DNA from: a virus
Length of the DNA stretch: 64,000 nucleotides
Direction: 5' to 3' (one strand)
IMG/VR virus record: IMGVR_UViG_3300048694_001005
Span: 1 to 64,000 of that record
A program made the position numbers and the translations under genes. The stretch's first letter is position 1; the number at the start of each line of letters is the position of its first letter. Shown piece by piece: positions 9,076 through 62,810 of this stretch. Under the pieces are notes generated by a model, which saw nothing but the letters and a program-made list of their open reading frames with translations, had not been told where the DNA came from and made no database searches.

Positions 9076-10770
9076 TTACTGACGTTCTTTGATATATTCC
9101 AATACTTGTTTCAACATTATACTAATATCAGACGAACCCAATTCTTCTGCGCCAGCATGAAACTCAGCTACATGCATAACTGCATCCGCCACCACTTCGT
9201 GACCGTGTTGTGCTACAATGTCAGGAAAACGATGTTCCAATCTGTCAAACAAAACGTTACCCAAGTCCTGTGAACTAATACCTTCTGTCAATTCTTTTAA
9301 ACGCATATTTTTCCCTTTGTTATTACTTTCAAGCATTCCCTGTTTCTTTGACAATATTTTGTACTTGGTATTAGGATGTTTGGCCAGTACCATAGCTGCT
9401 TGACTTTCTGCTTCGGATTTGGAAGCATAATGAGCAGCTGGTTTGTCATTTAGATATAAAACATATCTTTTAGTTATGGGGTCTGTAGATTCATCATAGC
9501 CTTTAACTGGGACTCGTTTTAAATCAGTATCGGTAAATCCACCACGATTGTATGCATCAGCTAATGCGTTGGCTAATTCTTTACTACCCGTAGTACCTGT
9601 GCCGTATTCTTCTCCATTGGGAAGGATACCCATTATTTGAAAAGTTGTCTTGCCGGGTTTAACATAAAACGATTCAAATGGTACTGGATCTTTAGCCAAG
9701 TTTGGAGGCAAAGCTCTGCCAACTTCACGATCAAATACGGGAATATCTATGCCCTCAACTTTGTGGTATTGATCCCGGCCACGCTGTGCTTGTTTGGTGG
9801 CAAACTTGGTGCGGATGACATCACCTTCAGCCACATCTTTTGTTCTATGTAATATCTCTTTGCTTACCGCCAATGCCATTTTTTCTCGTTTAGGATCTCC
9901 GTTTAAGAGTTTCAACATCTGCATTAACGAATCAGTAGAGTACTTAGTATAATCTGCCATTGGTAAAATTTTATTAGGATCGTCCTGATTTTTACCATCA
10001 GATTCTGCGTATTGCTTGTCTGCTATAGCATCACCATAGGTGCCAGGAACATCATCACGATATACATTGCCCACTCTTGCGGCTTCGGCCAGTGCGGAGG
10101 TCAATACCATGGATCTACGTCTAATTTCAAAGTCTTTGCCCGGATGCTCATGCTGTATCTTTAACAGCGCACGTTCAGCATCAGCTTGGTTTGGGGCCTT
10201 TTTAATCATACGCCCATCAGCGTATATCGCGTATTCTTCCGTAGGTGGTACTCCAGCTTCTTCCGTGTTAAGCATACCAATAACTGTAGCGTTGTTGCGA
10301 CGGACCCACAAATCCAATGCGGCTTCATTGGGGAATGTTTTGCTCCAGTGTTGACGCTGATCTCTGCGATCATACACATAACCATATGCTTCTACTGGTT
10401 GTGTTGGATCAAATCGGTTTTTACTTGCGGTCTTAACTGGTTCAGGTTCTTCTTCCAGTTCTGTACCAGCCGGTGCCACTGGTACAGGTAATGAAGGTTT
10501 GGGCTTTTTAGTTTCTTGGCTGTCAACAAACTTTTTAAATTCAGATTCACTGGCCCAGGTACCATAGGGACCATACATTCTGCTGTCTGCAGAATCAAAA
10601 GGATTTTCTTTTCCTAGCAATTCCCTGCCACTGGGATCAAATACGTGATGTACTTTTTTAGTTACATCAACATCAACTAATAGTTCTGGCACATAACGCC
10701 AACCCTGATAGTCTATTGGTTCGGGTTCGCCGCCTCGCCATAAGCCTTCAAAAATGTTAAATAAATTCAT
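9076..10770 (-). CDS. Putative head-internal modular polyprotein
   Basis: N-terminus MNLFNIFE; many [LIVM]xE|[SGA] sites (LAE-A, VAE-G, MLE-S, LTE-G) between unrelated short modules. Confidence 0.55.
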   Translation of the reverse strand: MNLFNIFEGLWRGGEPEPIDYQGWRYVPELLVDVDVTKKVHHVFDPSGRELLGKENPFDSADSRMYGPYGTWASESEFKKFVDSQETKKPKPSLPVPVAPAGTELEEEPEPVKTASKNRFDPTQPVEAYGYVYDRRDQRQHWSKTFPNEAALDLWVRRNNATVIGMLNTEEAGVPPTEEYAIYADGRMIKKAPNQADAERALLKIQHEHPGKDFEIRRRSMVLTSALAEAARVGNVYRDDVPGTYGDAIADKQYAESDGKNQDDPNKILPMADYTKYSTDSLMQMLKLLNGDPKREKMALAVSKEILHRTKDVAEGDVIRTKFATKQAQRGRDQYHKVEGIDIPVFDREVGRALPPNLAKDPVPFESFYVKPGKTTFQIMGILPNGEEYGTGTTGSKELANALADAYNRGGFTDTDLKRVPVKGYDESTDPITKRYVLYLNDKPAAHYASKSEAESQAAMVLAKHPNTKYKILSKKQGMLESNNKGKNMRLKELTEGISSQDLGNVLFDRLEHRFPDIVAQHGHEVVADAVMHVAEFHAGAEELGSSDISIMLKQVLEYIKERQ

Positions 10771-11315
10771 TTGGGTTGTTGTCTTTGTTGTGTAGTGATT
10801 ATTGTTTTTAGTTGCTGACCTAACTTTGGATCTTTTGCCAAATCGCCCATTACCTGAGCAGCTTTTCTTAATGTAGGTTGATCTCCCTTGGCTAACTTCA
10901 TGGGATCTATACCTGTAGTTGGTGTAAGTGTAGTTTTTGCTGCTGCCAAAGACTTTGCTGCTGCTGCTTTTTCCTGTGGACTTTGGGGTGCATTAGGTTG
11001 TGCGGGTTGTCCTGTTGCTGTGGCTGTGGCTGTGGCTGGGGCAACGGGTGCTTCGTCGATTTCTTCGCCCTGTGCGGAATTCATAAAACGCTCAAACTCG
11101 TCTAGATATTGACCTTCCAAGTCATCATGTTTAACACTTTCGCTACTGCCGCCAACTAAACGACCCTGAAATGGATGTTTCTTGTAAGGTGTGCCAGGTT
11201 CATAACCGGTCTTCTTAGCTTTTTCTGTTCCTCTTACTTGATCACCTGGCTTTTGTTTGGGCTCGCCTGCAAAGTCATAAGTTTCTGCCAGAAACTTTTT
11301 TATCGACCAGTTCAT
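10767..11315 (-). CDS. Hypothetical protein, probably head-internal
   Basis: ORF track; overlapping operon arrangement; LAE|T and IDE|A sites; Ala/Pro/Gln-rich. Confidence 0.55.
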   Translation of the reverse strand: MNWSIKKFLAETYDFAGEPKQKPGDQVRGTEKAKKTGYEPGTPYKKHPFQGRLVGGSSESVKHDDLEGQYLDEFERFMNSAQGEEIDEAPVAPATATATATGQPAQPNAPQSPQEKAAAAKSLAAAKTTLTPTTGIDPMKLAKGDQPTLRKAAQVMGDLAKDPKLGQQLKTIITTQQRQQPK

Positions 11316-12508
11316 TTTTTACCTTTCATGGGTCGTTTCACCGACTCACGTTTAATAGTACCAGGACCACCGTTTTTAAACCCATTGCCTGCCATACTGG
11401 TTGCGACGCTGGCGCTGCCTGTTGCTCCTGCCGACATTTCGGACAATTCTTCATCGTCATCCCAACCTTTAGCTTTGCCAGGAAAATAACGATGTACCGC
11501 TTTATCATGACTTGGTACTAGTTTCAAGCGACTGGGAGAAATATACCAACCACGTCCATCTTTGTCTTCGATTCGAACACGACGATCATAGGGATCACCA
11601 TTCATACGAAAGACTTCACCACCGTCGCCGTCCATTTCGTCACGCACAAAACAACCGTCGTAAAGTTCAGTATCGTCGTATTCACCTTCCGCCACACTTT
11701 GCTTTCGATCCAACATCACTGGCACAATTTTAATTTTATCACCGCTGCTAGGGTTGTATAGACCACGGTCAAAGGCATTGACGACCCCAACACGATCGGC
11801 TGTTTCTTGGTCAAAATTTCCTCTGAAACGCAAAACTTTTTTTCTATTGACTAAAATTTGCCATGTACCACTAAATCTACCAGGTTGTCGTTCTGATTCC
11901 GCCACACCTTGCTCACTAACCTTCTTTTTGTACAACGGATTGGTACTGCCTTGGTTTTTCATTTTTTTAACATCTCGGTCAAAAGGTTTATCTAAATCTT
12001 TCCAAGTGGTTTTGGAGCCTTCCGCCACACCTTTTACATGCCAAGTTTTACCGCATTGATGGCATTCTTTCTCACCATCACTGTAGGTTTTGATATCGGT
12101 ACTGTAACAGCCCGGGCAATGTGTACTAGTAGTAGGTTTGGCACCTGTACCTGACTTTGTCTTGGGTTCTGGTTCGTTCTTTTGATCTTCGGCCATACCT
12201 TGCGAGGATTCGGACAATCCCAGTGTTTCATCTACAGTGATGTCACCAGTGCTGTGCTGTTCATATTCCAAATAGCTGCGAACGCTACAAAGATAATCAG
12301 ATGCTTTGGTAATTTTAGCCTGCACCCAGCCCTCGATATTTGCATCTTCGGGCAGATGTTTTAACATATCATGTAATGCCATAGCTGCTTTGGCTGCTTT
12401 GTACAGCTCGCTGCGCGCCATTTGCACCTCATGATCTATATGCATAGCCTTGGCTTGATCGCCAATAATCTCTAACTGCTCTTCGTCGTGAAATTCTACA
12501 AGTTTCAT
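11312..12508 (-). CDS. Putative head-internal polyprotein with repeat-delimited cassettes
   Basis: MKLVEF N-terminus; MAE-D, VAE-G, VAE-S, VAE-G, LSE-M sites; late box at 12536-12542. Confidence 0.6.
   Translation of the reverse strand: MKLVEFHDEEQLEIIGDQAKAMHIDHEVQMARSELYKAAKAAMALHDMLKHLPEDANIEGWVQAKITKASDYLCSVRSYLEYEQHSTGDITVDETLGLSESSQGMAEDQKNEPEPKTKSGTGAKPTTSTHCPGCYSTDIKTYSDGEKECHQCGKTWHVKGVAEGSKTTWKDLDKPFDRDVKKMKNQGSTNPLYKKKVSEQGVAESERQPGRFSGTWQILVNRKKVLRFRGNFDQETADRVGVVNAFDRGLYNPSSGDKIKIVPVMLDRKQSVAEGEYDDTELYDGCFVRDEMDGDGGEVFRMNGDPYDRRVRIEDKDGRGWYISPSRLKLVPSHDKAVHRYFPGKAKGWDDDEELSEMSAGATGSASVATSMAGNGFKNGGPGTIKRESVKRPMKGKK
11687..12030 (-). repeat. Three identical in-frame 11-bp direct repeats GTGTGGCGGAA
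   Basis: Plus-strand TTCCGCCACAC at 11687-11697, 11897-11907, 12020-12030; degenerate copies near 12188-12202 and 9826-9836. Confidence 0.85.
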
Positions 12509-12538
12509 AAGATTTACCTTTAAATTCTATTAATGTAT

Positions 12539-12811
12539 TTATTTTTTGAACGTACCATCTGTGCCTAGGTTTATGGACTCTCCATTTAATACCGCGTTTT
12601 TTAAACTAAAACTAGTTGTATAGGGCCCTGCTACAAAAATTTTATGCTCACCTTCCGTTAGCCTCACCACACAACGTTCTCTAATAAATTGTGAGTTAAT
12701 ATCATAGGAAAAATCACGTTCCGTTAATAAATCCTGATCTAAATATAACCTATAATAGGGCACAGGCTCTACATTATTGCAATAAACATCTACGGTTAGC
12801 ACATCTTCCAT
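12539..12811 (-). CDS. Hypothetical protein
   Basis: ORF track; 1-nt overlap with the upstream stop. Confidence 0.6.
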   Translation of the reverse strand: MEDVLTVDVYCNNVEPVPYYRLYLDQDLLTERDFSYDINSQFIRERCVVRLTEGEHKIFVAGPYTTSFSLKNAVLNGESINLGTDGTFKK

Positions 12812-15800
12812 TAGGGAACCTTTTTGGGTTCAGCTGGGATTACAGGTGCTGGTAATGGCTGCTTTGATTTTTTCCTTTGTTCGAGATCTCGTAATCTAGC
12901 AAGTAATTTTTCACTAGCCGGGCGTACTCTCTTACGGTTAGTTTCACTTAATCTGAAAGGTTCCTTGACTGAGGTCTTTATTTTCCAATCACTAAATTTC
13001 AACATCAATAATGTTTTGAAATGTTCTAGGTCAGCCAAGGATTTAAACAAAAATCCCCAAAAAATCATTTCTGAATTTGCGATTTCTTCGCCAGGAAAAC
13101 TAGTTATTGAACCATCCTCACGTTTCAAATATATTAGATTATTGCGTTTTTCCAAAAACTCTGCAGGTTTATTTAGATATTTGAACACCAACAATTTTCC
13201 CATAACCACAGCAGTTACACTAGCAGCAAAATAATATTCTCCAACGGTAGGAGTTTCGGATTTGTAATTTGAGAAAAAATCTCTAACTGTAGATAATTCT
13301 TCTGGACTTTCTTTAAGATGATTAGACTTAATTTGAAGTTTTTCAACTTCCAACATCGTTTCCAATACCACATCATCATAAACTATACCATCTACTATAG
13401 TTACGTGTTCAGGAAGATCATTACTAATTAACTTTGAAGTATTGGCGTAATTTTTGGAAATGGGACGAACGTAGTCACGATCACCAGTAATTGGGCTCAT
13501 GCTGTCGCCTTCAATCTCATTGATTTTGTCATCAATTTTTGCCAAGTTCATGTTCTTTCTAGCAACATCCATAAGATGCTTAATCCAGGGCTCACCCAAT
13601 TTTTCTACGTTGTAGGCCTGAGACCAAATGCCCAATTTTTGCTTTGCTGTAAGGTTAGGATTAGCTAATGCTTGGCGCAGTTGTGTAGTGCTTACACCTG
13701 TGCCGCCCTGCTCTGCAGATCGCGGTGTTATGTATGCAGACACTTTGACGTGGCTCAATGGCGCAAAACGACCAAATCTATCCTGCATTGACTTAGCTAC
13801 TTTAGCAACTCCAGTTTGATCAGCACCAACCGTTATAATTATATTGTTGTAGTGTGGCTGCTTTTTGACTAATTCATATTCTATCTTTTTAAAGATATTG
13901 CCCACAGTTTCGGCGCCGGTTGCTGGATCTATTTGATTTTGTACCTCACTAATAGTTACGCCAGGATACAATTTACGCAAAGTTTCTAATTTGGTATGAA
14001 TATCAATAGGATCTTCTTTACCCACTTTGTGTCCAACAAAAACAAACGGTGTACCTTTTACTGCTTTGGCTTTTTCAATGGCATAATTAATTAACTGCTC
14101 ATGGCCTCTATGCCCAGCAAAATTACCAATAGCTACTACCGCGGTACGTGGTGTATGTCGTACTGCTGGTGTTACAACTTGTCGCTGCACCGGCGCGGCC
14201 GCAGCTTTCTTGGCCGCCATTTTGTGTTGCATTAATGTGCTAGTAACTTTAGCTAGCAAACCGCTGGGCATATTAATTACTAAACCTTCAATATTTTTAC
14301 CCAGTTGATCCTTGCCTTTAATCTTGGGGTTTTTAATAATTGCATCAGATAGTGATTTACGTAATTTGTTTAAAATTTCCCTAGCTTTTTGCTTCTCTGG
14401 TGTCATGCCACCACGTCGCAATAATGCATCTTTTACGGCTGGTTCCATATTAACCACAGGTGCTATTATTTTCTTCACATCTATTGCAGCATGTTTCAGT
14501 TCATTGTCTACAAATTTAATTGACTTGTCACCTTGCGACAATAATTTATGCTTAATCTTATCAGCATCAGGCAATGATTCACCTGTACTATACTTCTTAA
14601 ACATAAAGGGCACAAGTGTCATTTCTTTACCCAATTTCTTGGGATCATAACTGATATTGACAAACTTGTAACCATCTTTGGTTTTCTCGGCCATGTCATT
14701 AAACAACATCTCCGCTTGCACAATGCAGTCTTTGGGTAGTGTTTTAATAAACTTGCTGTTTACAATTAGAGATAATGCTTTGTCATAATTTTTGGTGCGA
14801 TCTAATTGTTCTTGGCTCTGCCCTTGTTCTCTGCCATATTTTTCAAAACTGCCAATATCTTTAGCGTATAGCGGGGAGGTCACACGGCTAGTCATCATAA
14901 AAGGTTCACCCTTTTGATCACGACCAAAACGAATTCCAGCACCATCAACCTTAAGATTAATTGGAATACCCGTTAATGTGCCTTTGTTGGCAGTAATTTC
15001 ATCGCACATCATAATGAAGTCACTGTCACGCATCTCGGTTGAACTTCCTGGATTATAGATATGTTTGATGCCCTGACGCTTGTAATTGGGTTTGGCGGTT
15101 TCTGCTTCTTTAAGCCCTTCTGTTACTTTCATTCTGTAATTAGCTTTGTAATCTGCTACCATCTTTTGGAAGTTTTTAGGTGCTTTTATTTTCAATGCTT
15201 TTAGCATAGCATCTACCGCGATCATTTTTTCCCGTGCATCAGTTTCTGGATCGTTTACGTATAGACCCTGTGCAGCTGGGCCAAAAGTTTTATCTATGAA
15301 GGAATCTGCTACTTTTTGTTTTTCTTCTGGTGATAGATATTGATTAATTACTGATAAAACCCCCAAGAAAGACCAAAATTTAGGTGCCACCGAGGCCAAC
15401 TGTTTATTACTAAGGCGCTCACCAAACAAAGTTGCAAATATTTTAGATAAATCCTGCTCATACCCAGTAGTGGGCCTAGCAGTGTACACCTTCATACCAT
15501 CTTTAACCAAAGGTTTTTTAGTTGTTGTATCAATAACTGGCTCGTATTTTATACGTAACCCGCCACCCTCTTTACTTTGTACCGAAAAACTAATCATGTT
15601 GTCAGTCATTGGAACATCTTGCTCTGCGCGAGCTTTGCCACGACCAACCAATTTACGCAATAGGAAATCCTGTTCGGTTAATGAAGCCAAACTTTGCAAA
15701 ATAAACTTATGGAATACGCCCTTGATACCAGCTTGTAGATCTTCCCACGCAGAGCTGGCACTGAATCTGCTCCATTCAGTTGGCGTACCTGCTTGGAATG

Positions 15801-44241: not shown

Positions 44242-45678
44242 TTACTCAGTAATTTTTAATACTAAGTTACCGCAATCCCAAAATCTACGATACCCCGCCG
44301 CAAACATATTTTGACTTTCTGTTAATGTCATGCTAAAGGATGGTAGCCACTTGCTTAACTTTGTTTTTTGGCACCTATACCTACTTATAGGCACCGACCC
44401 ATCAGTCCAAAAGTAACCGGGGCCAGTTTTGTTTATTAACTGGAATCCCGCAGCGATATAACCAACTGCTTGACTTTTAGCGCGGTCACAATAGGTTACA
44501 ATGTTGGTTCCGTATTTTTGCTTGATAAATTTCAGCAACTTGCTTAATCCACCAACCACAGTGATCCCAGGCATAGAACAAAATCGTAATATTTCTAAGT
44601 CAAACTCTTTTGAAAACCTAGACTTACCAATTGTGATTAACTGTACTAATTCATTGTTGTGATATAATCCGACTGCTGCATGACACGCAACATATCCCTG
44701 TAAGTGGGTTGCTTCTAAAAACAACTTTTGCTCTTTAGTACCTACCAACTTGATCTCGCAGGATCGTGCAAAAATTCTGTTGTTTAGCCCTATTTTTGAT
44801 TTAATTATGCTCTTAACTATATCAGTTTTGTGATTCCATTCAAAATCAGTAATATGTAAAAGTGCTATTCCTTCTGCTTCGGCCGCTGACGTTTTGTCGA
44901 TGTGTCTTTGTTTATATTCTGGTTTATTGCCGTTGGGAGTCCAACTATGCCAATACAATCCATTTATCTCTATAGCTAACTTGTGTTCAGGCAAATAGAT
45001 ATCTAATTCTTTATTTCCCAAGATAGACCAATTGCCTAACTCATACTTTACTCCAAGTTCATCCAAATATTCTGCAACTCGTTTCTCCTCTAAACTATAA
45101 TTACTTCTACGTCGTATCTTAAATCCATGTCTCCTGCAGTATTCTGCTACAGTCCCATAATATATATTCAGCTCATCGGCGATGTCGACTAAACTCTTGC
45201 CTAATACGTTGTATTGTTCATTTAACCAAGAATAATCACCCAAGCACTGCGACGCTTTTACGGACATTTTACTTTTAGTCCAGATATGCTTTATATCTTC
45301 TCTCTGACTATTGAACTCCACTCCATATTTCATTAACATCGACTTTTGTCGTTGAGTATTAATCTCCATACGCCTGTCTGCGGAATATTTGGATTTTGTT
45401 AACGCGACCCGCGCTGATATACGTTGACTGGTGCAGGGGCATGACGACGCTGGGCCACATCCTGTAAATCCGGTTGATATGCGACCAAACTTTCGAATTT
45501 TTCCATTTGGGCATTTATTGGTTTGCTGATATATCGCGCTGTATATTTGTGCCGGCAATGATTCGTCAGTTACCAGTGTATTTTGTTTAATCCACTCAAG
45601 TAACTTTGGATCTTTTTTGATTGTCCTAACATACGTCTTGGCATTTTCATTAATTAGTTTAAGAATTTGTTCTCGCAT
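44242..45678 (-). CDS. Free-standing homing endonuclease-like protein (Vsr/PD-(D/E)xK core, Hef-like C-domain)
   Basis: ELDIYLPEHKLAIEINGLYWH...HITDFEW; RIFARSCEIK...EILRFC; inserted right after gp23. Confidence 0.7.
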   Translation of the reverse strand: MREQILKLINENAKTYVRTIKKDPKLLEWIKQNTLVTDESLPAQIYSAIYQQTNKCPNGKIRKFGRISTGFTGCGPASSCPCTSQRISARVALTKSKYSADRRMEINTQRQKSMLMKYGVEFNSQREDIKHIWTKSKMSVKASQCLGDYSWLNEQYNVLGKSLVDIADELNIYYGTVAEYCRRHGFKIRRRSNYSLEEKRVAEYLDELGVKYELGNWSILGNKELDIYLPEHKLAIEINGLYWHSWTPNGNKPEYKQRHIDKTSAAEAEGIALLHITDFEWNHKTDIVKSIIKSKIGLNNRIFARSCEIKLVGTKEQKLFLEATHLQGYVACHAAVGLYHNNELVQLITIGKSRFSKEFDLEILRFCSMPGITVVGGLSKLLKFIKQKYGTNIVTYCDRAKSQAVGYIAAGFQLINKTGPGYFWTDGSVPISRYRCQKTKLSKWLPSFSMTLTESQNMFAAGYRRFWDCGNLVLKITE

Positions 45679-45783: not shown

Positions 45784-46962
45784 TTAACTGAATGTCAAGT
45801 TGCTGACAGAAATCTCGCCGAGGTAGTCTCCGGCATTTCCCAGCGAACTTGCGGTATTGGTCAATTCTATGTAGCCATATCTCGTCATAAAGCCAACGAC
45901 TGGTTCGAAGGTATTTGGATCCAGCACAACGCCGCTGCTCATCAATGGAATGTATGGGCAGTAGAATGCTGCTGCATCTGCTTCGCTGCTACCTTTGTAA
46001 CCAACAAGTACTGCGGTGCTATCACTTGCGTAGCTATCAACGTAAACTTTCATAGCGCCGTTCAGTGTACCAACGAACTTAGTGTTAGTTGGGGCTTCAA
46101 AGGTGCCTTCAGTTGTACGTGCAAAAGCCGAAGTAGTTGCGCTTTGTAGCACGGTTAGGGCTGTTGGGCTAACTACGCACCAGTTACCAGCGCCACGACG
46201 TGTACGTGCAGCGATCTTGTTTGCAACGCGGTTGATAAGAACAGCAAGTGCAGCGTGTTCATCACCAACGAAAGTTGCGGTACCGCTAACTGCGGCTTGG
46301 TTAAATGTTTCTTCAGTTGCTGCAAGGCTGCGCAAGCTGTTCAGGACTTCTTGGTCGATTTCAACCGTAATTTCCTGAGCCAATGCTGCCATGATTTCTG
46401 CTTCAACATCAAGGCCGTGCATAGCTTGTGCATCTTGTGCAGCTTCAAACGTCCAGCGAGCGCTCAACTTGCGTGTACGAGCTTCAACTGTCTGCTTGAG
46501 GATCTGCACGTTGATCTTACGACCAGGTGAACCTTCAAGAGCGGTTGTTGCGCTTGCGCGAGCTGTAGCTGCATCACCTGAGTAAGCAACTGCAATTTTG
46601 AATGGGCTCAGTGCTTCGTCACCGGCGGTTGTGTCGGTGTTTAAGCTGCTGGTGTCATTCATTGTCTCTGCATAACGAACACGCAGAGTGTGGATCTGTG
46701 CGATTGGACCAGTCATTGGCTGAACGCCAACGATTTCGTTCGCAATCACGGTTGGCATAACACGACGGATCACTGGAAGGATCACGCGATTTAGGGTAGC
46801 AACGTTACCTACTGCTGTTGCACCGGTGGTCGCAGTTTCCATCAAGTGTTTGCGTGTGTTTTCCAACACAACTGCCATACTCGTACGGCGTGAACCTTGA
46901 AGACCTTCTAACAGGGCTTCTTTTGTTTCACCCCAACGACTTTCTAGTAATGCTTTTGTCAT
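45784..46962 (-). CDS. gp23: Major capsid protein
   Basis: IVGVQPMTGP, RKLSARWTFEAAQD, EITVEIDQE, FYCPYIPL, FMTRYG. Confidence 0.96.
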   Translation of the reverse strand: MTKALLESRWGETKEALLEGLQGSRRTSMAVVLENTRKHLMETATTGATAVGNVATLNRVILPVIRRVMPTVIANEIVGVQPMTGPIAQIHTLRVRYAETMNDTSSLNTDTTAGDEALSPFKIAVAYSGDAATARASATTALEGSPGRKINVQILKQTVEARTRKLSARWTFEAAQDAQAMHGLDVEAEIMAALAQEITVEIDQEVLNSLRSLAATEETFNQAAVSGTATFVGDEHAALAVLINRVANKIAARTRRGAGNWCVVSPTALTVLQSATTSAFARTTEGTFEAPTNTKFVGTLNGAMKVYVDSYASDSTAVLVGYKGSSEADAAAFYCPYIPLMSSGVVLDPNTFEPVVGFMTRYGYIELTNTASSLGNAGDYLGEISVSNLTFS

Positions 46963-46984: not shown

Positions 46985-48088
46985 CTACTTTAGCCCTGCT
47001 AGACGCTTGAGTTCCACGACGTTACTGTCTGTGTTCTCTACAACCGTCTTAACAGCTTTGTCACCAGTCACTTCTTTACGGCTTTCTGCCAGTACTTGCT
47101 TATTAGCCTGTACTTCTGCAGGTTTACCGTTAGTTAGAACTGCTGGTAGATACTTGTCAAATGCGGACTTTAGCTTAGGAGTCTGCACTGATTCCAACAA
47201 CTCGCTCATTACACGTGCCTTATCTTTGGTTAGTGTGCCCAGCAATTCGTTCATAGTCTCCTTGCGTTCCATTAAATCTTTCTGAACGCGGATTTGTGAC
47301 TCTTTGCTTTCCACCAACTTAGTCTTAGCAGCGATTACTTTTTTACTTTCCGCAATGATAGCTTCCTGACCAGCAATAAGTTTATTAAGCTTACTGATCT
47401 CTGTGTTTTCATTTAGGTGAGTAACTGTAAATTCACTTGCAAAGGCTTCAAAAATGCGGCGACCAAACATATTTTCGCGAGCTTCTTTGATGTCTTTCTT
47501 GAACTGTGTAAGTTCAGCTCTTAGATTCTTGGCCACTGATTCCTTAACAATAGCTGCGCTCTGGGTCACAAATTTCTTTTCTAGTGATTCCAGTTGAGCT
47601 TTTGCGTTGGACATCAAGCGAACTTTGGTTTCAGCCAAATCGCGCTTGTCGATGGTGAACTCCTGAATCTCTTCAGCTAATTGCTTGATCACAAATTTCT
47701 CTAGACGAGCGATTGCTTCGTTTTGAGTTTTGCGATCTGCACGTAGTTCCTGAATTTCTTCAGCAAGTTTACCAGTCAAGAACTTGTTGAATTTACGACC
47801 AGTTTCCATTGCATGATTCTTAAATGCAACGCGGTCTTCCATCAACTTGCGCTTGTCTTCTGCAAATTCTTGCAACTCTTGTTTCAGACTTTCGGTCACC
47901 ATTTTGTCTAAAGCTTCAACCATAACCGACTTATCATGCTCGTAGTTTCTGGCGAATTCTTCACGTAGCTCGGCGCGGACCTGTTCACGGGTCTCTGCCA
48001 ACTTTGATTCCCAAGCTTCGCTAATAGCTTGCTTGGTATCTTCGTTCACCAATCCACTATCGATCAGGGGTTTTATCGCTTCTAGCAT
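46985..48088 (-). CDS. gp22: Prohead core scaffolding protein
   Basis: Coiled coil between gp21 and gp23; start reassigned to MLEAIKP (AAGGAG SD); many LxE|S sites. Confidence 0.85.
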   Translation of the reverse strand: MLEAIKPLIDSGLVNEDTKQAISEAWESKLAETREQVRAELREEFARNYEHDKSVMVEALDKMVTESLKQELQEFAEDKRKLMEDRVAFKNHAMETGRKFNKFLTGKLAEEIQELRADRKTQNEAIARLEKFVIKQLAEEIQEFTIDKRDLAETKVRLMSNAKAQLESLEKKFVTQSAAIVKESVAKNLRAELTQFKKDIKEARENMFGRRIFEAFASEFTVTHLNENTEISKLNKLIAGQEAIIAESKKVIAAKTKLVESKESQIRVQKDLMERKETMNELLGTLTKDKARVMSELLESVQTPKLKSAFDKYLPAVLTNGKPAEVQANKQVLAESRKEVTGDKAVKTVVENTDSNVVELKRLAGLK

Positions 48089-48687
48089 TTGGTTCTCCTT
48101 AATAGGACTTCTTGTAACCCTCTGTCCTGTTGGGTTATTCCGGTGTCGAGTTCTTGGGCACCGCAAATTCTCTTTTTGTTTTGCTTAGTTAATCTTTCTG
48201 TGTTACCAATTTTTAGACGTTGTTCGGGTGTAAATGAATGTCCTGGTTTACCTTTTCTGGTATTTCCTGATCTAATGCCATTTAATCGTACTTTTTCATT
48301 AGTTTCTTTCGTCAAACCTTTATTCCAAGCGACTCGACCTTTTTTAGATTTTGATAATTTATCTTTATGCCTCTGACTCATTGGTCCTTTTTGCTTACCA
48401 GACATTGAAAATTTTTTATCATTATTAGATTGGTTAAAACTTCTAGAATCGTTTTTGGCATCTAATAACTGTAGAATTTCACTTTCTAGTTCAATCATTT
48501 CGGACGGGCTACCTGTTGCAATTATATGTCGATACCACTCTTCTTTATTTTCTAAGATCATAGGTTTGACTAACTTGCTTGAACAGATGTAACCATCATC
48601 TGGATGGCAACCTCTTGCTGTTCGTGACCCCACATACCAATTCAACGTGGGTATGTGGGTCCATTTGTAAAGAAAAGCTGTAGTCAT
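48082..48687 (-). CDS. Seg-like GIY-YIG homing endonuclease with NUMOD3 motifs
   Basis: FLYKW...WYVGSR, YICSS; MSQRHKDKLSKSKKGRVAWNKG, HSFTPEQRLKI. Confidence 0.75.
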   Translation of the reverse strand: MTTAFLYKWTHIPTLNWYVGSRTARGCHPDDGYICSSKLVKPMILENKEEWYRHIIATGSPSEMIELESEILQLLDAKNDSRSFNQSNNDKKFSMSGKQKGPMSQRHKDKLSKSKKGRVAWNKGLTKETNEKVRLNGIRSGNTRKGKPGHSFTPEQRLKIGNTERLTKQNKKRICGAQELDTGITQQDRGLQEVLLRRTKC

Positions 48688-49322
48688 TTTAATTTCAGTT
48701 CGTTTATAAGTTTTAATACCGATTCTCTCAAATACTTTTGTACTCTTAGATCGGCACTAACATCCTTAGATGCTTCGATCACCCTATGTCCACCCTGCAT
48801 ATTCATCAACCCTTCAAATACAGGTTTAGGATAAGCATTTGGGGCACTGGGTTGTGCCACGATATCAACTGTTACTATTTCAAAGTTACGTACCTTGCCC
48901 GTGCCGTCATCAACTTCACCACTGCCACGTGAACTGACACCTAGTTTTACACCACAATCCAACATGGTTTTAACTATGTTGCCCATGGGTGTTGGAATAA
49001 TTCTCATTTTTCCAAAACCATTAGGACCATCCATCCACATTTTAGTAATTACGTGACTAACACGGTCTAAGTTAATTTTTAGGTCAGCTGGGTGATCTAC
49101 CTCGCCCAATACGCTGTGTCCTTTGGCAATTTGTTCGTTAATAAAATCTACTGCCTTGCTAATTTCTTCAACTGGGTAGATGCGTTTATTTTGATTCTCA
49201 ACCGCTGCCTGAATAAAGATACCTTTGAGAAAAAGATCCTTTCGTTCGCCAGTGCCCTCAGTCTCTAGTACTAAGTTTGCCTGGTCGAACGAAAGTTGTT
49301 CTCTAAGTAATGTTGTAGACAT
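48684..49322 (-). CDS. gp21: Prohead protease
   Basis: GIFIQA..NQNKRIYP, GEVDHP, LGVSSRGSG, DIVAQPSAPNA. Confidence 0.95.
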   Translation of the reverse strand: MSTTLLREQLSFDQANLVLETEGTGERKDLFLKGIFIQAAVENQNKRIYPVEEISKAVDFINEQIAKGHSVLGEVDHPADLKINLDRVSHVITKMWMDGPNGFGKMRIIPTPMGNIVKTMLDCGVKLGVSSRGSGEVDDGTGKVRNFEIVTVDIVAQPSAPNAYPKPVFEGLMNMQGGHRVIEASKDVSADLRVQKYLRESVLKLINELKLK

Positions 49323-50764: not shown

Positions 50765-52498
50765 TTATGCTGTAGGTGCACCCGCCATGCCCGGTGGCCC
50801 AGCTGCTGCCGGTGCTGCGCCCGGTACTGGTGCTATACCTGCTGCACCAGGCGCAGGCTCTGCACCCAACATACCGCCTTCATCTGGCGGTGTTAAACTA
50901 TCTGCCATGGACATGTCTGTTTCAATACCGCCCGGTGTCACACCCACACCACGTAAACCAACATCGCCCGGTGTGGACTCTGAGGCATCACCTTTTTCTT
51001 CCTGCCACAAGTCATCATTTTCCGCCATTTCTTCCTCAGTCAAGCCCAAATAACGCTTGAGCAAGAAACGTTTGCTCAAGTAAGGCACTTGTTCCAAGCT
51101 GGTAAATGTTTGTACTTTGGCTGAATCTACTTCGGCCTGTTTGTATGTGCTAAAGTTTTGTGGCTCACAGAATGCTAGTTCAAAAATACTACCATCAATA
51201 TTCACACCACGCCAACGGCAATACATTTTAAACTCTTTGTCCAGTTTTTCAGACAACATGTTCTGCAGTCGTTTACAATATTGATTGAAACGCCATTCCT
51301 GTATCAGTGCGGTTCCTACTTTGCCATCGGTAAATGCTTGTGTGCCATCTTCGGGGCCAGTAGGCAAATAGCTACTGGGTATACGTAGGCCACGGAATAA
51401 TTTGTTTGTGAAGAAACGCAGGTCGTCAATCTCACCTAGATTTTGACCACCGGCAAGAGTGGTTACATCACTACCACGACCACCTTCGCCCACTGGAAAG
51501 AAATAATCTTCATTTATAGATAATGGATTGTATGTTGCATCCATCATATTGCTGCCGCCACCGGCTTGTGTAGGTATGCGGCGCTGCCAAACTTCATTTT
51601 TTACCCGCTCAACAAATGCCATGGCCATGTGGCTGGGCATATTACCCACGTCAATCTTAAATACTCTACGCTCAGGGGCACGTTGTACGCGGTAAATGAT
51701 GATGCTGTCTTCCAGCAATTCTTTTTGTTTGAATACTTTGAAAATCTGTTCCAATATACTGTTACCAAATGGCCAGTTTACATCCAGGCCTTCAGTTAAG
51801 CTAAAATGTACCACATGTTCTGCATTGATGCAGGATTCGTTTTGTGCATGACTGAACCGTGTGCCGCCACTGTAAGGCGTCTTGGGTTGCACATAAGCCC
51901 CACTGGGACCACCCACCTGTGGATGATTGACAAATGTATCGCTAGTACTAACCTGTGTGACTGTTAAGTTTTGAAAGTTAGGGTTTATTTCTTTCACTAT
52001 ATATTGCTCTGGTTCTTTGCCCTTGCTTTCATTCACAATAACTTTAGTAACTTTACTCATTTCTACCCAATAAAGTTCAAAGGTTTCCGGATCACGTAAA
52101 AAAACTTGGTCTCCATACTTCAAAGTATTTCTAAATAGTTTGAAGATACGCTTGTTTAGTTTGTTTAGATTACACCAAGTTTGTAGTTGTTCTTTAAGTA
52201 TATTGATTTCACGATCAGTAGGTCGTTCTTTGAACTTGAGATCAAATGGTGTATGTGTTTCTTTATTGGATTGTGTACAGAATTCAGCCAACACGTCCAG
52301 TGCCGCATTGACCTCGCTGTCACAATCCATTTGTTCGTATTGATTGTAACGATCTAGTCGGTTGGGGTGTCCAATATAAACTTCTGGTAATTGGTATTGG
52401 TAGTTTCTATACGCAAAATCGTTAACGTTTTGCCCAGCATTAGACAGTGGGCTTACGTTGTTAATCTCTACGACTTTAAAATGCTTTTTCCAGCTCAC
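50765..52498 (-). CDS. gp20: Portal vertex protein
   Basis: EDSIIIYRVQRAPERRVFKIDVGNMP, EDYFFP, LGEIDD, LRIPSS; late box 52522-52529. Confidence 0.95.
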   Translation of the reverse strand: MSWKKHFKVVEINNVSPLSNAGQNVNDFAYRNYQYQLPEVYIGHPNRLDRYNQYEQMDCDSEVNAALDVLAEFCTQSNKETHTPFDLKFKERPTDREINILKEQLQTWCNLNKLNKRIFKLFRNTLKYGDQVFLRDPETFELYWVEMSKVTKVIVNESKGKEPEQYIVKEINPNFQNLTVTQVSTSDTFVNHPQVGGPSGAYVQPKTPYSGGTRFSHAQNESCINAEHVVHFSLTEGLDVNWPFGNSILEQIFKVFKQKELLEDSIIIYRVQRAPERRVFKIDVGNMPSHMAMAFVERVKNEVWQRRIPTQAGGGSNMMDATYNPLSINEDYFFPVGEGGRGSDVTTLAGGQNLGEIDDLRFFTNKLFRGLRIPSSYLPTGPEDGTQAFTDGKVGTALIQEWRFNQYCKRLQNMLSEKLDKEFKMYCRWRGVNIDGSIFELAFCEPQNFSTYKQAEVDSAKVQTFTSLEQVPYLSKRFLLKRYLGLTEEEMAENDDLWQEEKGDASESTPGDVGLRGVGVTPGGIETDMSMADSLTPPDEGGMLGAEPAPGAAGIAPVPGAAPAAAGPPGMAGAPTA

Positions 52499-59730: not shown

Positions 59731-61734
59731 CTAAATATTTGCTATTTCCGTACTGGTTTCATACGTGGTAAAGCCATTTTCTTTGATGACTCGTAGTATA
59801 TTGTTTACCCTACCTGCTAATTCATCCTTGTGACTTACTAACCAAACACTTTTATTGAGCTCACGACTCATGCGTTTAAGCATACCTAGTGCATTATCTA
59901 CGCCGCTACTATCCAGACCGCTGTCAATTAGCTCGTCAATAAACATGAGATTAATGGGCTGATATAAACTTTCCCAAACATCACGAAATGCCCAGCTAAG
60001 GCTCAGTATCAGTCGTGTTCTTTCGCCCCTCGATAAATTATCAAAGTCCAGCTCACGGCCCAGTTCTGTGATCTCAACTGTGAGGTCATTCATAAAGGTT
60101 ACAGTATGTGGCAACCCAATACGTTCCAAATACTGGCTTAGACGTGTATTCAAATAGCCTAAGTTTTGATCAATGATGCGTTTACGTACAAAGCTATCTT
60201 TGTTGGTCAGCAATTTAAGCAAAAACTCCTGATGCTCACGTAACATTTCCAATTGATTGATGGTTTCATAGTTAATCTCAATCACGGCTTTGTTCTGCAT
60301 CTCGTCGATTTGCTCGACGTAGGGATCAGTTTCGTTTTCTTTGTTTTCAAGATCCCTAACTAGTCCATCCAACCGGTTTTTATGATCCAATGCATCCGCC
60401 AGCGTATCATAAAACACTTTGGGCATGGCGCCCAGGGCTCCTAGCTGTTTTAGTGATGCGTTATGCTCTTTTTCCTCTGCATCAGACCGGTTCCACTGCG
60501 TTTCTGCTTCCGTCAGTGACTCTTGTTTGTCTCTGCGGATTTCTTCCTGCTTGCCATCATGTATAGTTTGTCCACAAGCATAGCATTCGTGATTATCCAG
60601 TGATGCGATCTCTTTGCGCAGCTTTTCCTGAGCTTTTTCTAACTTAGCTTTATCATCTGCAGACTGTTTAATCAGCTTTTTGCATTCATCAATTTGCTTC
60701 TTGCGTTCGTTATAAGCATCAAGGTCACGATGTAGTTGTAATTCTTGCTCAATGTCTATGTTTACTAGATCGCCTATGGATCTAGACAGTTTGGCCTTGT
60801 CTTCTTCGTGTTTATTCTGCCACAGCCGCTGTCTACGCTCTAGTGATTCAATTTGTTCCTTGATTCTCGCATTGGCTTCTTCTGTGGCCTTAATCTTGTA
60901 TTGTTCCTGGGTAATGAGATCTTTGGTATCTTTGATTTGCTCTTTGAGATGATCAGCTTTTTCACTTAGCAGTGTAATACCCAGCAGTTGCTCAATGATA
61001 CTGCGCTGGTCAGCTGCTCTAAGACTTAGGAACGGCTCAGTATAAGTGTTTAGCGCCACGATATGCTTAAACATATCAGGGCTGATACTTAATATACGTT
61101 CTATTTCCTGTTGTGTTTCGCGGCTGTCGCCCTGACTTTCGTCAGCTTCGTTATTTGCAGCATCTACTCGCTCAACGTCATTTACATAAAACTTCAGCAG
61201 TGTGGGTTTACGACCGCGCTCAATGCGATAGTGGTTGCCGCCATGCTCAAAATCCACTGTGACCAGCATGTTTTTGCCGTTGGTCTTATTAATAAGATTG
61301 TCTTTTTTGATATTGGTTAGTGCATTGCCAAATAACCCATAGCTAAGAGCATTGGCAATAGTAGTATTGTGCGACAGAATCCCATTGGTATAGTATCTGT
61401 GTTCATCAGAATTAACGGCAATGTCAAACATATTTTCTTCTTGTTCAGAAGCTTGTATGTCTGATACTTTCTCTAACCCATCAATGGTTTGAATAAATGA
61501 ATTAAGCCTAATGTCTTTTACAAAAATTTCGTTGAATTCATCATTAAATAAAATATGATCGTCCGCGCACCTGAGATTTTTCCCTGATTCGGTTTTGACC
61601 GTCCATACATGATATGGAATTGTTTTATGTATGGACGTAATGGGACTCCATCCAGAATCTGTTTCAATCTCTAAATTTTTTAGATTTACAGAGTTGATAA
61701 ATTTTCTATTTACGATGTCAGAAATTGAATGCAT
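59731..61734 (-). CDS. gp46: gp46/SbcC C-terminal part fused to a split-intein IntC
   Basis: aa 1-123 intein (ADDH, MFDI, SHN|T), then coiled coil, CYAC hook, LSRGE signature and FIDE Walker B. Confidence 0.9.
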   Translation of the reverse strand: MHSISDIVNRKFINSVNLKNLEIETDSGWSPITSIHKTIPYHVWTVKTESGKNLRCADDHILFNDEFNEIFVKDIRLNSFIQTIDGLEKVSDIQASEQEENMFDIAVNSDEHRYYTNGILSHNTTIANALSYGLFGNALTNIKKDNLINKTNGKNMLVTVDFEHGGNHYRIERGRKPTLLKFYVNDVERVDAANNEADESQGDSRETQQEIERILSISPDMFKHIVALNTYTEPFLSLRAADQRSIIEQLLGITLLSEKADHLKEQIKDTKDLITQEQYKIKATEEANARIKEQIESLERRQRLWQNKHEEDKAKLSRSIGDLVNIDIEQELQLHRDLDAYNERKKQIDECKKLIKQSADDKAKLEKAQEKLRKEIASLDNHECYACGQTIHDGKQEEIRRDKQESLTEAETQWNRSDAEEKEHNASLKQLGALGAMPKVFYDTLADALDHKNRLDGLVRDLENKENETDPYVEQIDEMQNKAVIEINYETINQLEMLREHQEFLLKLLTNKDSFVRKRIIDQNLGYLNTRLSQYLERIGLPHTVTFMNDLTVEITELGRELDFDNLSRGERTRLILSLSWAFRDVWESLYQPINLMFIDELIDSGLDSSGVDNALGMLKRMSRELNKSVWLVSHKDELAGRVNNILRVIKENGFTTYETSTEIANI
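61366..61734 (-). mobile_element. Split intein C-fragment (123 aa)
   Basis: Block B LRCADDH, block F MFDIAV, terminal ILSHN with Thr at +1. Confidence 0.88.
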
Positions 61735-62810
61735 TTTTTAATTGTTTCCTTTTGATTTTTCTTGAAATCATGTTCCCAGATAATTAAAACTTCATATCCT
61801 TGATCACGAGCACATTGTAATTTTACAGCATCTGATGCCCATTTATCAATAGATTTAACTTTAGTTCTTGGATTTATAAAATCTGGCGAATATATAGAAG
61901 GGTTAGAGTGCCAAAAATCACCATTATATTCTATGATTTTATTATTGGCCATAATATCATAGATGTATTGTTTTTTACCTGATTCATGTAAAGTAAATTG
62001 ATGTATGGCATCTGGTATTGTTTCTTTTATTGCTTTCAGTATTAATTTTTCTGCTTTTGAAACAGTAATTCCTTTAGTTAACTTTAAACGATTAATTCTA
62101 GACTTTTCTTCTGCGGATTTGGAATTTAAGGTGCCCTGCCATTTATTTTGTCGATCTTGCCAAATCTTCATCCCCTCATTTTCTCCATATTTTTGTACGC
62201 ATATTTCTTTTGAAAAATATTTTTGCGAGTTTGACAACATGAGTGCTGACTCTTCTGCGGAATATCCCCTAGCAGTATAGTATTCAATACATCGAGGTGA
62301 TGAAACTCGATGTAAGTTTGATCTAGATTTTTTTTCGGCACCTAATTTATTATTGGACCTTTTCGTTTCTTTAGCTAATTTAATAGCTTCTTCAAGAGAA
62401 AATCCTTTGTTGATCCAATACTCTTTCCTAATCGGCCTTCGACTATTTCTTTCTTGATCAGCTTCGTCCTCGGTATAGTTTTTTCCGGTTATGGGATTGA
62501 TCTTGTTAAGCCAAAAATTTCTGCTATAAACACTACACGGATTCCCTGATTTATGTTTTTTGGCCTTTATATGCGACTCCTCATAGGTCCAGCCTCGTGA
62601 TAACCAATAAGATTTTGTGCGTGGCGCAGCATTGGTTGTTAGGTTTAATTTTTGACGAATGAATTGCTCAATAATTTTCTTGTTGTTTTCAATTTTGATA
62701 CTCAACAAGTCGACTAACAATTTTTGATACAGATCAGGATTTAAATTTTTGATAGTTTGTTCCATTACTTCTTGACAATTAACTTTGAGTTCTTTGTTCC
62801 AGCGCGGCAT
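61710..62810 (-). CDS. Vsr-like homing endonuclease between the two gp46 halves
   Basis: IIEYNGDFWH...YEVLIIWEHD; repeated YWxxRG/YYxxRG units; visibly AT-rich; overlaps both flanking genes. Confidence 0.8.
   Translation of the reverse strand: MPRWNKELKVNCQEVMEQTIKNLNPDLYQKLLVDLLSIKIENNKKIIEQFIRQKLNLTTNAAPRTKSYWLSRGWTYEESHIKAKKHKSGNPCSVYSRNFWLNKINPITGKNYTEDEADQERNSRRPIRKEYWINKGFSLEEAIKLAKETKRSNNKLGAEKKSRSNLHRVSSPRCIEYYTARGYSAEESALMLSNSQKYFSKEICVQKYGENEGMKIWQDRQNKWQGTLNSKSAEEKSRINRLKLTKGITVSKAEKLILKAIKETIPDAIHQFTLHESGKKQYIYDIMANNKIIEYNGDFWHSNPSIYSPDFINPRTKVKSIDKWASDAVKLQCARDQGYEVLIIWEHDFKKNQKETIKKCIQFLTS

Follow-up and report, generated by a model that had tools for sequence, protein, structure and literature searches.

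What keeps a short stretch of coding DNA identical, down to its silent bases, at the joints between protein units that show no similarity to each other? The question is raised by gene A, a 398-amino acid (aa) open reading frame (ORF) at 11312..12508, minus strand, of the first 64,000 nt of a 180,565-base IMG/VR virus record (IMGVR_UViG_3300048694_001005, estimated to be 51% complete); we refer to this 64-kb stretch as the window. The ORF, comparison with orthologs and a structure model divide gene A into an N-domain, four cassettes and a C-tail. The answer that we favor, with a probability of about 60%, is that gene A is a capsid-cargo polyprotein, in which the linker between modules doubles as a protease site and as a joint for short-homology recombination. 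The source is an uncultured T4-related giant freshwater (lake) phage; the public runs that match the region are freshwater metagenomes throughout, and there was no RNA run among those listed as matching it.

The repeat GTGTGGCGGAA occurs exactly three times in the window, always on the minus strand (11687-11697, 11897-11907 and 12020-12030), against a chance expectation of 0.01, and none of 100 shuffles reached three copies. A degenerate copy, CAAGGTATGGCCGAA, lies at 12188-12202. The spacings are 168, 123 and 210 nt, all multiples of three, and every copy is in the frame of the gene A ORF, exactly as the initial annotation had described. The sequence context that it gave for the repeat is approximate: the core is exact, but TCA comes after the second copy, and AGT stands in place of GGT in the third. 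In translation the exact copies give KGVAE↓G, QGVAE↓S and QSVAE↓G, and the degenerate one gives QGMAE↓D (arrows mark predicted cuts). The units between repeats, of 56, 41, 70 and 83 aa, have no detectable similarity to each other, in agreement with the proposal of an in-frame array of mutually unrelated cassettes.

From its N-terminus (all parts on the minus strand), gene A begins with a constant N-part (aa 1-100, 12209..12508), which consists of the tag-like MKLVEFHDEE and a helical domain (DHEVQMAR..EGWVQAKITKA..YLEYE) and ends in GLSE↓S. The degenerate linker (CAA GGT ATG GCC GAA, QGMAE↓D, 12188..12202) is followed by a CxxC..CxxC zinc-ribbon-like unit (cassette 1, 12035..12187), linker 1 (AAA GGT GTG GCG GAA, KGVAE↓G, 12020..12034), a basic peptide of 41 aa counting the linker after it (cassette 2, 11912..12019), linker 2 (CAA GGT GTG GCG GAA, QGVAE↓S, 11897..11911), a unit beginning SERQPGRF.. 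of 70 aa, again counting the linker that follows (cassette 3, 11702..11896), and linker 3 (CAA AGT GTG GCG GAA, QSVAE↓G, 11687..11701). An acidic, SH3-like small beta-barrel ending in ELSE↓M (cassette 4, 11438..11686) and a constant C-tail (SAGATGSASVATSMAGNGFKNGGPGTIKRES.., 11315..11437) complete the protein. In an AlphaFold2 model (mean pLDDT, the predicted local distance difference test score, of 62), the helical N-domain is confident (about 90), as are a small three-stranded CxxC..CxxC unit (81-88) and the C-terminal beta-barrel (75-90), whose Foldseek matches to SH3, Tudor and PWWP folds are weak (E about 0.1). The basic unit, the supposedly 'beta-rich' cassette 3 and the linkers have low confidence, and the alignment is thin around the linkers; in this model the linkers are probably flexible. 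Foldseek with the whole model gave nothing at E <= 0.001. Gene A, its individual cassettes, a related gene B and the orthologs were scanned against Pfam and PHROGs, which returned only families of unknown function (DUF3008, phrog_16028), with T4_Y13H and ProQ-C-like matches below threshold; no peptidase or enzyme domain was found by these scans in gene A, gene B or the orthologs.

Is the repeat simply what the peptide requires? Codon usage in 152 non-overlapping ORFs of the record (GTG 0.21 of Val, GCG 0.12 of Ala and GAA 0.77 of Glu codons) predicts GTGGCGGAA (GTG GCG GAA) for about 2% of Val-Ala-Glu (VAE) tripeptides. Of the 28 VAE tripeptides in the record, six lie in (Q/K)(G/S)VAE(G/S) sites and all six are encoded by GTGGCGGAA, compared to 0/22 of the others, bearing out the suspicion that codon choice here is not ordinary. 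All nine strict linker motifs of the record are confined to three genes: gene A, gene B (904 aa, at 122637-125351 of the record, G000:C1, outside the window) and a 564-aa gene close to gene A. The 16-mer AAGGTGTGGCGGAAGG was present in at least 120 IMG/VR contigs from uncultured viruses, many with 2-5 copies at multiple-of-three spacing, and in nearly all of them it is read as GVAE within a long open frame; the initial annotation had suggested a scan of related phages for such in-frame copies.

Since these loci were chosen by the motif itself, we applied three controls to the silent-site identity. At the 16-mer loci, GVAE followed by a residue other than Gly, which the search pattern could not have selected, had exact GTGGCGGAA in 41/76 cases, vs. 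7/138 for other VAE tripeptides. In 80 loci found via alignment of the helical domain, GVAEG was exact in 7/8 cases vs. 0/117 for other VAE. Lastly, the share of the top codon was 0.38-0.44 in conserved Ala and Val columns of the helical domain and 0.93 in the linkers of the same genes. In three related contigs (L131, L132 and L133), GVAE was exact in 7/11 cases. The linker consensus is (A/G)A(G) CAA GGT GTG GCG GAA GGC in DNA and (K/E)-Q-G-V-A-E↓G-S in peptide, and the variants GVTE, GMAE, DVAE, SVAE and GVSE are mostly one base off the consensus DNA, which argues that linkers are related by copying rather than by convergence. The repeat is conserved at the DNA level beyond the requirements of the peptide.

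We then asked how the cassettes between the linkers vary. A protein search with gene A returned 427 relatives, nearly all matching one cassette only (15-30% of the query), and five true orthologs (P0005, P0006, P0007, P0009 and P0010). As had been anticipated, orthologs keep the same termini and differ in the number and identity of their cassettes. All five share an N-part of the form MKLxEFHD...DHEVQMARSELY...EGWVQAKITKA.DYL.SV.SYLEYE..STG and a C-tail of the form ..AGATGS..ATSM.G.NGFKNGGPGT.KRES; their middles are wholly different and are split by KGVAE↓G, QGVAE↓G, RVTE↓G and GVTE↓G. The nucleotide identity of the N-part is 90.6% with L131 and ~70% with L132 and L133, and 547 or more IMG/VR loci contain its domain family. 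There are also minimal homologs of 130-170 aa without any cassette (L134 and L135), in which the tag and helical domain are followed by FTVAE↓D and the tail. Gene A is therefore a small gene in which an array has been inserted between domain and tail.

The closest comparison is with contig L131, which matches the window in three blocks of 96.5%, 90.6% and 92.5% nucleotide identity. In L131, the 517 nt at 11702-12218 of the window, comprising three cassettes, are exchanged for 1078 nt comprising two other cassettes. Compared codon by codon, homology resumes exactly at CAA (A/G)GT GTG GCG GAA GG, i.e. at window position 11701 in linker 3. Genes A and B share two blocks only, the zinc-ribbon cassette (94% nucleotide identity), which is also found in a third gene, P0013, and the basic cassette with both flanking linkers (95.7%); the latter block ends at linker 2. 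Cassette 3 has a homolog in another context (P0011), and cassette 4 is common to P0005, P0006 and P0022 in differing contexts. We also compared 131 polyprotein frames taken from other contigs. Where different genes had a block of at least 85% identity in common, 39% of the 5′ ends and 59% of the 3′ ends of such blocks lay no more than 12 nt from a linker, compared to 6% for random positions.

Metagenome assemblies gave the same picture. Contigs of four freshwater runs from four studies, aligned on window 10800-13000, stop matching at 11704 (in all four runs), 11897, 12015-12019, 12033 and 12203, which are the four linkers; divergence was also seen at 11438, where cassette 4 gives way to the tail. 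Past the linkers they continue into several sequences, two of which are the gene B and P0013 contexts, and the summed contig depth of the zinc-ribbon cassette is 3-8x that of its flanks. Since the words used in assembly are longer than the linker, the branches represent real junctions and not joins induced by the repeat. A joint skipping 103 nt (11913 to 12017) was seen in one low-depth contig with 22 nt on one side, and was not counted. Strict clustering of 489 cassettes gave 399 families, and the neighbors of recurrent families differ almost every time; one six-member family has six left and six right neighbors. Cassette turnover between close relatives is recent, with breakpoints at linkers. 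Apart from the left L131 breakpoint and one difference between genes A and B, to which we return below, the data agree with the proposed use of the repeat as the joint of exchange.

What could the peptide encoded by the joint be for? Proteases of the gp21 family cut after Glu in short motifs, such as A-x-E in SPN3US, S/A/G-x-E in phiKZ and the T4 site LIE-9 (PMC5694885, PMC9026906). The linker fits the pattern hydrophobic-x-Glu, with a hydrophobic residue in P3, Glu in P1 and a small residue after the cut, and the window contains a gp21-family gene, in line with the gp21-type site read from the repeat at the outset. From the motif, it is plausible that the linker is the cleavage site of the phage's own gp21-family protease.

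The head module to which this gene belongs is T4-like (all genes on the minus strand). It comprises a gp20-type portal protein (50765..52498; PF07230, E 1e-104), the gp21-family prohead protease (Peptidase_S77, 48684..49322; PF03420, E 5e-30 and 6e-29 in two scans), a candidate gp22-like coiled-coil scaffold (46985..48088), so assigned by its composition and its position between the protease and capsid genes, and a gp23-type major capsid protein (45784..46962; PF07068, E 4e-99). The candidate scaffold had no match in a Pfam scan; it contains many hydrophobic-Ala-Glu sites (KLAET, IIAES, VLAES, DLAET), and the N-terminal propeptide region of the capsid protein holds LLE↓G, VLE↓N and LME↓T. Among cultured phages, the most similar capsid proteins (64-69% aa identity) are those of Sinorhizobium phage Phosso, Vibrio phage 2.275.O, Pseudomonas phage PA5oct and Erwinia phage pEa_SNUABM_19, all jumbo phages with T4-type heads. 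A DNA search of the region against cultured phages gave zero matches.

The N-termini of the polyprotein genes (MKLVEFHDEE, MHVLDLFGEE, MNLFNIFEG) and of a 182-aa gene next to gene A (..KKFLAE↓T) resemble the tag of the T4 internal protein IPIII, MKTYQEFIAE (10.1101/2021.01.19.427310). It is the combination of the scaffold and capsid motifs, the confinement of the linker to three genes and the tag-like N-termini that leads us to read gene A as a precursor that would be loaded into the head and cut there. A further observation comes from locus L219 (G002:C1:171000-184000), where a twin-arginine-like signal (GSLEEIDRRGFLKGLGAAA..) or a Sec-like hydrophobic leader directly follows QGVAE↓ in genes starting at 181551 and 173713 on the minus strand; the same was seen in L075. 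Twin-arginine-like signals thus stand right after the linker in two unrelated contigs, and from their position they would make sense only if a cut at the linker gave a free N-terminus.

We propose the following model. The constant N-part, tag and helical domain together, and the C-tail would frame an open-ended array of unrelated small modules, each ending in (K/E)-Q-G-V-A-E↓G encoded by (GAG) CAA GGT GTG GCG GAA GGC. The precursor would be loaded into the prohead and cut after Glu by the prohead protease to yield a helical fragment, four small proteins and the tail, and the released small proteins would travel with the DNA into the next host. The 15-21 nt of linker identity common to all arrays would serve homologous or short-homology recombination, through which exchange between paralogous genes and co-infecting relatives could add, delete and swap modules, every recombinant product being in frame and still cleavable. 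Repeated exchange would also homogenize the linkers (concerted evolution), which would account for their silent-site identity.

A number of observations weigh against this model. The case for cleavage and packaging of the cargo is one of motif similarity, and MKLVEFHDEE resembles the IPIII tag without a clear processing site at the T4 position. The 343-kb record G002 (99% complete, 48% G+C) has four exact linkers in two polyproteins, and matched neither the T4-type models PF03420 and PF07068 nor the HK97-type models PF04586 and PF05065. Its head genes may have diverged too far to match these models, or the site may be cut by a different enzyme, and a gp21-type enzyme is therefore not established for all carriers of the linker. 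The closest cultured relatives, Phosso, 2.275.O, PA5oct and pEa_SNUABM_19, contain a 12-mer of the linker only at background level and with one mismatch, and when cultured phages were searched for a 33-nt consensus linker, none matched it over 19 nt or more. As for exchange, the left junction of L131 (window 12219, at the end of the N-part) lies in GL(S/A)E↓S and not at a canonical linker. The two blocks common to genes A and B are separated in gene B by 59 additional codons, a difference that is not bounded by linkers at both ends. Lastly, 15-21 nt is short for efficient homologous recombination of the T4 type, and the linker breakpoints could instead reflect selection for intact domains.

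The alternative that we take most seriously, although we think it unlikely, is that the chain stays uncleaved, like beads on a string, and works as such in the virion or the cell, the linker being a flexible spacer and a recombination-promoting junction. There is a precedent for such junctions in the 'recer' interdomain sequences of Gram-positive surface proteins, reportedly described by de Chateau and Bjorck (PNAS 1996), which are short conserved nucleotide sequences at module junctions that encode unstructured spacers and promote the exchange, in frame, of modules coding for domains. Our arrays share with them a short conserved in-frame nucleotide sequence at the junctions and exchange breakpoints at that sequence; the recer sequences differ in belonging to other organisms and a few genes, in their actual sequence and in having no proposed role as a protease site. 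An uncleaved chain would agree with the lack of a recognizable gp21 in one carrier genome (G002) and with a 708-aa fusion of the same kinds of domains without GVAE linkers in the cultured cyanophage S-SM2. However, a mere spacer would not require an invariant hydrophobic-x-Glu with a small residue after it, and the variant linkers GVTE, GMAE, DVAE and GLTE retain this pattern. The same type of motif is present in the candidate scaffold and the capsid propeptide, signal-peptide-like sequences follow immediately after linkers, and single cassettes are found as free-standing small genes in other phages. These features favor a cut precursor.

Could the identical silent sites serve the mRNA or its translation instead, as an interdomain pause or as a site where an RNA enzyme binds or cuts, the breakpoints being due to selection for whole domains? 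GTG and GCG are among the rarer codons of this genome and the motif is always in frame within coding sequence, as this would predict. But the linker is not a cluster of rare codons, since no codons are used more often than GGT and GAA for their respective residues; the identity extends to the neighboring codons CAA and GGC, the same bases are used in phages of 39-48% G+C, and the blocks that are 94-96% identical stop only a few bases from the linker, as fits crossovers in an identical stretch. We consider this explanation improbable. We rate still lower, as very unlikely, the idea that a dedicated site-specific recombinase or homing-type nuclease recognizes the 15-21 nt site, which would make this a true integron- or shufflon-like system. 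Such an enzyme would account for the unusual uniformity of the site across many phages, and homing-endonuclease genes are abundant in these genomes, with one such ORF adjoining the capsid gene. A scan for tyrosine recombinases (PF00589; serine recombinases were not searched for) gave 0 matches in the 180-kb record, itself 51% complete, vs. matches in 14/14 control genomes, leaving no basis for an integron- or shufflon-type enzyme. There is, moreover, no conserved enzyme gene beside the arrays in L131-L133, and some breakpoints fall at non-canonical sites. The likeness to integrons, with which the initial annotation had compared the array, is one of analogy only: a large environmental pool of small units that can be joined in any order through a common joint. 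It does not extend to the site or the machinery: integrons have an integrase, a structured attC and separate ORFs, none of which is seen here, and our site is a direct in-frame coding repeat of 15-21 nt without dyad symmetry, inverted repeats or attC-like structure. A chance repeat or an assembly artefact has a negligible probability, given the expectation of 0.01, a repeat too short relative to the assembly word length to create false joins by itself, and frames that are open in at least 120 independent contigs and in four independent studies.

If gene A is indeed a cut cargo precursor, a close parallel would be the internal proteins of T4. IPI, IPII, IPIII and Alt are non-essential, highly variable cargo, brought into the prohead by a short N-terminal tag (a capsid-targeting sequence of 10-19 residues with a gp21 site at its end), trimmed after Glu by the prohead protease and injected together with the DNA (PMC9026906, PMC3012670). 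The phage studied here has the same head module of gp20, gp21 and gp23. The T4 proteins, however, come from separate genes with their own tags and one or two cuts each, whereas here a single tagged precursor would carry up to about a dozen modules with a repeated, silent-site-frozen site, whose cleavage is predicted. Exchange at short conserved motifs is also known from T-even gp38 adhesins, where segments are exchanged in frame through crossovers in or near glycine-rich motifs (PMC3157838). As in gene A, the exchange takes place inside one gene of T4-type phages; unlike here, the motifs are the structural core of one domain and the segments have one function, whereas our cassettes are unrelated domains and the motif is a linker. 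PeSLs, cassettes of an early promoter and a terminator stem-loop that bound non-essential genes, drive modular shuffling in T4-type phages (PMC2839356, PMC4122927), and similarly consist of short repeated DNA motifs that mediate shuffling between close relatives. They differ in being intergenic, regulatory and ~50 nt long, while the repeat in gene A lies inside the ORF, in frame, over 15-21 nt, and reads Gly-Val-Ala-Glu. Many domains in one protein are likewise typical of the polyvalent proteins of phages and conjugative elements, in which many conflict-related domains are fused, and for which delivery along with the DNA and processing into separate units have been suggested (PMC5512222). Those are large known enzyme domains with an embedded metallopeptidase, compared to the small modules of unknown family and the single repeated, DNA-conserved joint found here; neither an embedded peptidase nor conflict enzyme domains appeared in the scans of gene A, gene B and the orthologs. 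By analogy, the gp38 glycine-rich motifs, PeSLs and recer sequences appear closer to the present case than integrons or shufflons.

The component parts (internal proteins, motif exchange, PeSLs, recer sequences and polyvalent proteins) are thus known. For their combination, our literature search gave no paper: none described a phage cargo precursor whose unrelated modules are separated by a repeated, silent-site-frozen linker with a fit to the site of the head protease. For the peptides GVAEG, QGVAE and KGVAE, there was no phage paper among the matches listed, which mostly concern alpha-synuclein.

We can also ask how far the model extends beyond gene A. A broader version would have giant phages share an environmental pool of hundreds of cassettes through one 15-21 nt in-frame joint that is also the head-protease site, such that captured cassettes would be packaged and injected as separate proteins, in an integron-like manner without an integrase. 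It would have to include a carrier without a recognizable T4-type capsid or protease, and we put it forward tentatively, at somewhat less than even odds. If the linker works as proposed, any small protein placed between two joints would be expressed, loaded, cut free and delivered. The cassettes (399 families among the 489 of this small sample), nearly all without a known family, would then be a catalogue of candidate host-takeover or anti-defence proteins, and the arrangement suggests a design rule for bringing several foreign proteins into T4-type heads from one precursor. The linker is also a short coding sequence selected or homogenized at the DNA level, and a clear natural case of in-frame module shuffling.

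The other two genes that carry the linker, and the smaller genes around gene A, have histories of their own. Gene B has exact repeats at 123913, 124036 and 124204 and additional linker-like sites (QEMAE↓G and KDVAE↓A), and P0024 is an ortholog with a different cassette set. One gene B cassette (KPGLYANV..RMRKPG) corresponds to the entire phrog_16028, a free-standing 50-aa family of marine podoviruses; single cassettes do occur as free-standing small genes in cultured marine phages. The 564-aa gene (9076..10770, minus strand) is a second polyprotein of the window, with a constant N-part followed by a variable part with KDVAE↓G. Its homology with L131 stops at 9979, and its orthologs of 1047 aa (L132) and at least 1131 aa (L133) have other cassettes with canonical QGVAE↓G linkers, including homologs of the gene A zinc-ribbon unit and of the gene B N-part. 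Tandem 'empty' linkers, with 1-3 residues between two cut-site motifs (..KKLSE↓DQGVAE↓G, ..SRMGE↓NQIGVAE↓G and ..AEVSE↓SQGVAE↓G), were observed in L080, L132 (5931-9074) and L219. Loss of a cassette, or the joining of linkers of two types, may have left them behind as scars.

Gene order around gene A was the same as in the window in all three of the five orthologs that were examined on their contigs: genes of 239, 150, about 990-1169 and 90 aa, then gene A, a gene of about 180-216 aa and a long variable gene. The 182-aa gene of the window (10767..11315, minus strand) begins with MNWSIKKFLAE↓T, which resembles a capsid-targeting tag. Its ortholog in L132 (5281-5931) has gained an insert of ~45 aa ending in KGVAE↓A, and small neighboring genes therefore also acquire linker-bounded modules. 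The 1169-aa gene upstream of gene A has a 526-nt in-frame insertion (~171 aa; window 12946-13471) near its C-terminus, which is not bounded by a GVAE linker and is absent from the 96%-identical relative L131. This gene contains a nucleotidyltransferase-like region (PF06574, below cut-off; phrog 'cytidyltransferase').

The S-SM2 fusion mentioned above (SSM2_109; L218), from a cyanomyovirus of Synechococcus, is encoded between gp16 and gp17, and combines the helical DHE..W.Q.KITKA domain with a DUF3008-like unit and a CYHKVKSRY..WPSAYASGALV unit. Elsewhere in the window, a gp46 identity considered for 59731-62810 was not confirmed by Pfam at E <= 0.001 and was not used. The head module itself is broken by two ORFs, one of 478 aa that adjoins the capsid gene (44242-45678) and one of 201 aa between the protease gene and the candidate scaffold (48082-48687). 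Both resemble homing-endonuclease-type insertions, and PA5oct has a Hef-like homing endonuclease at the corresponding place after its capsid gene.

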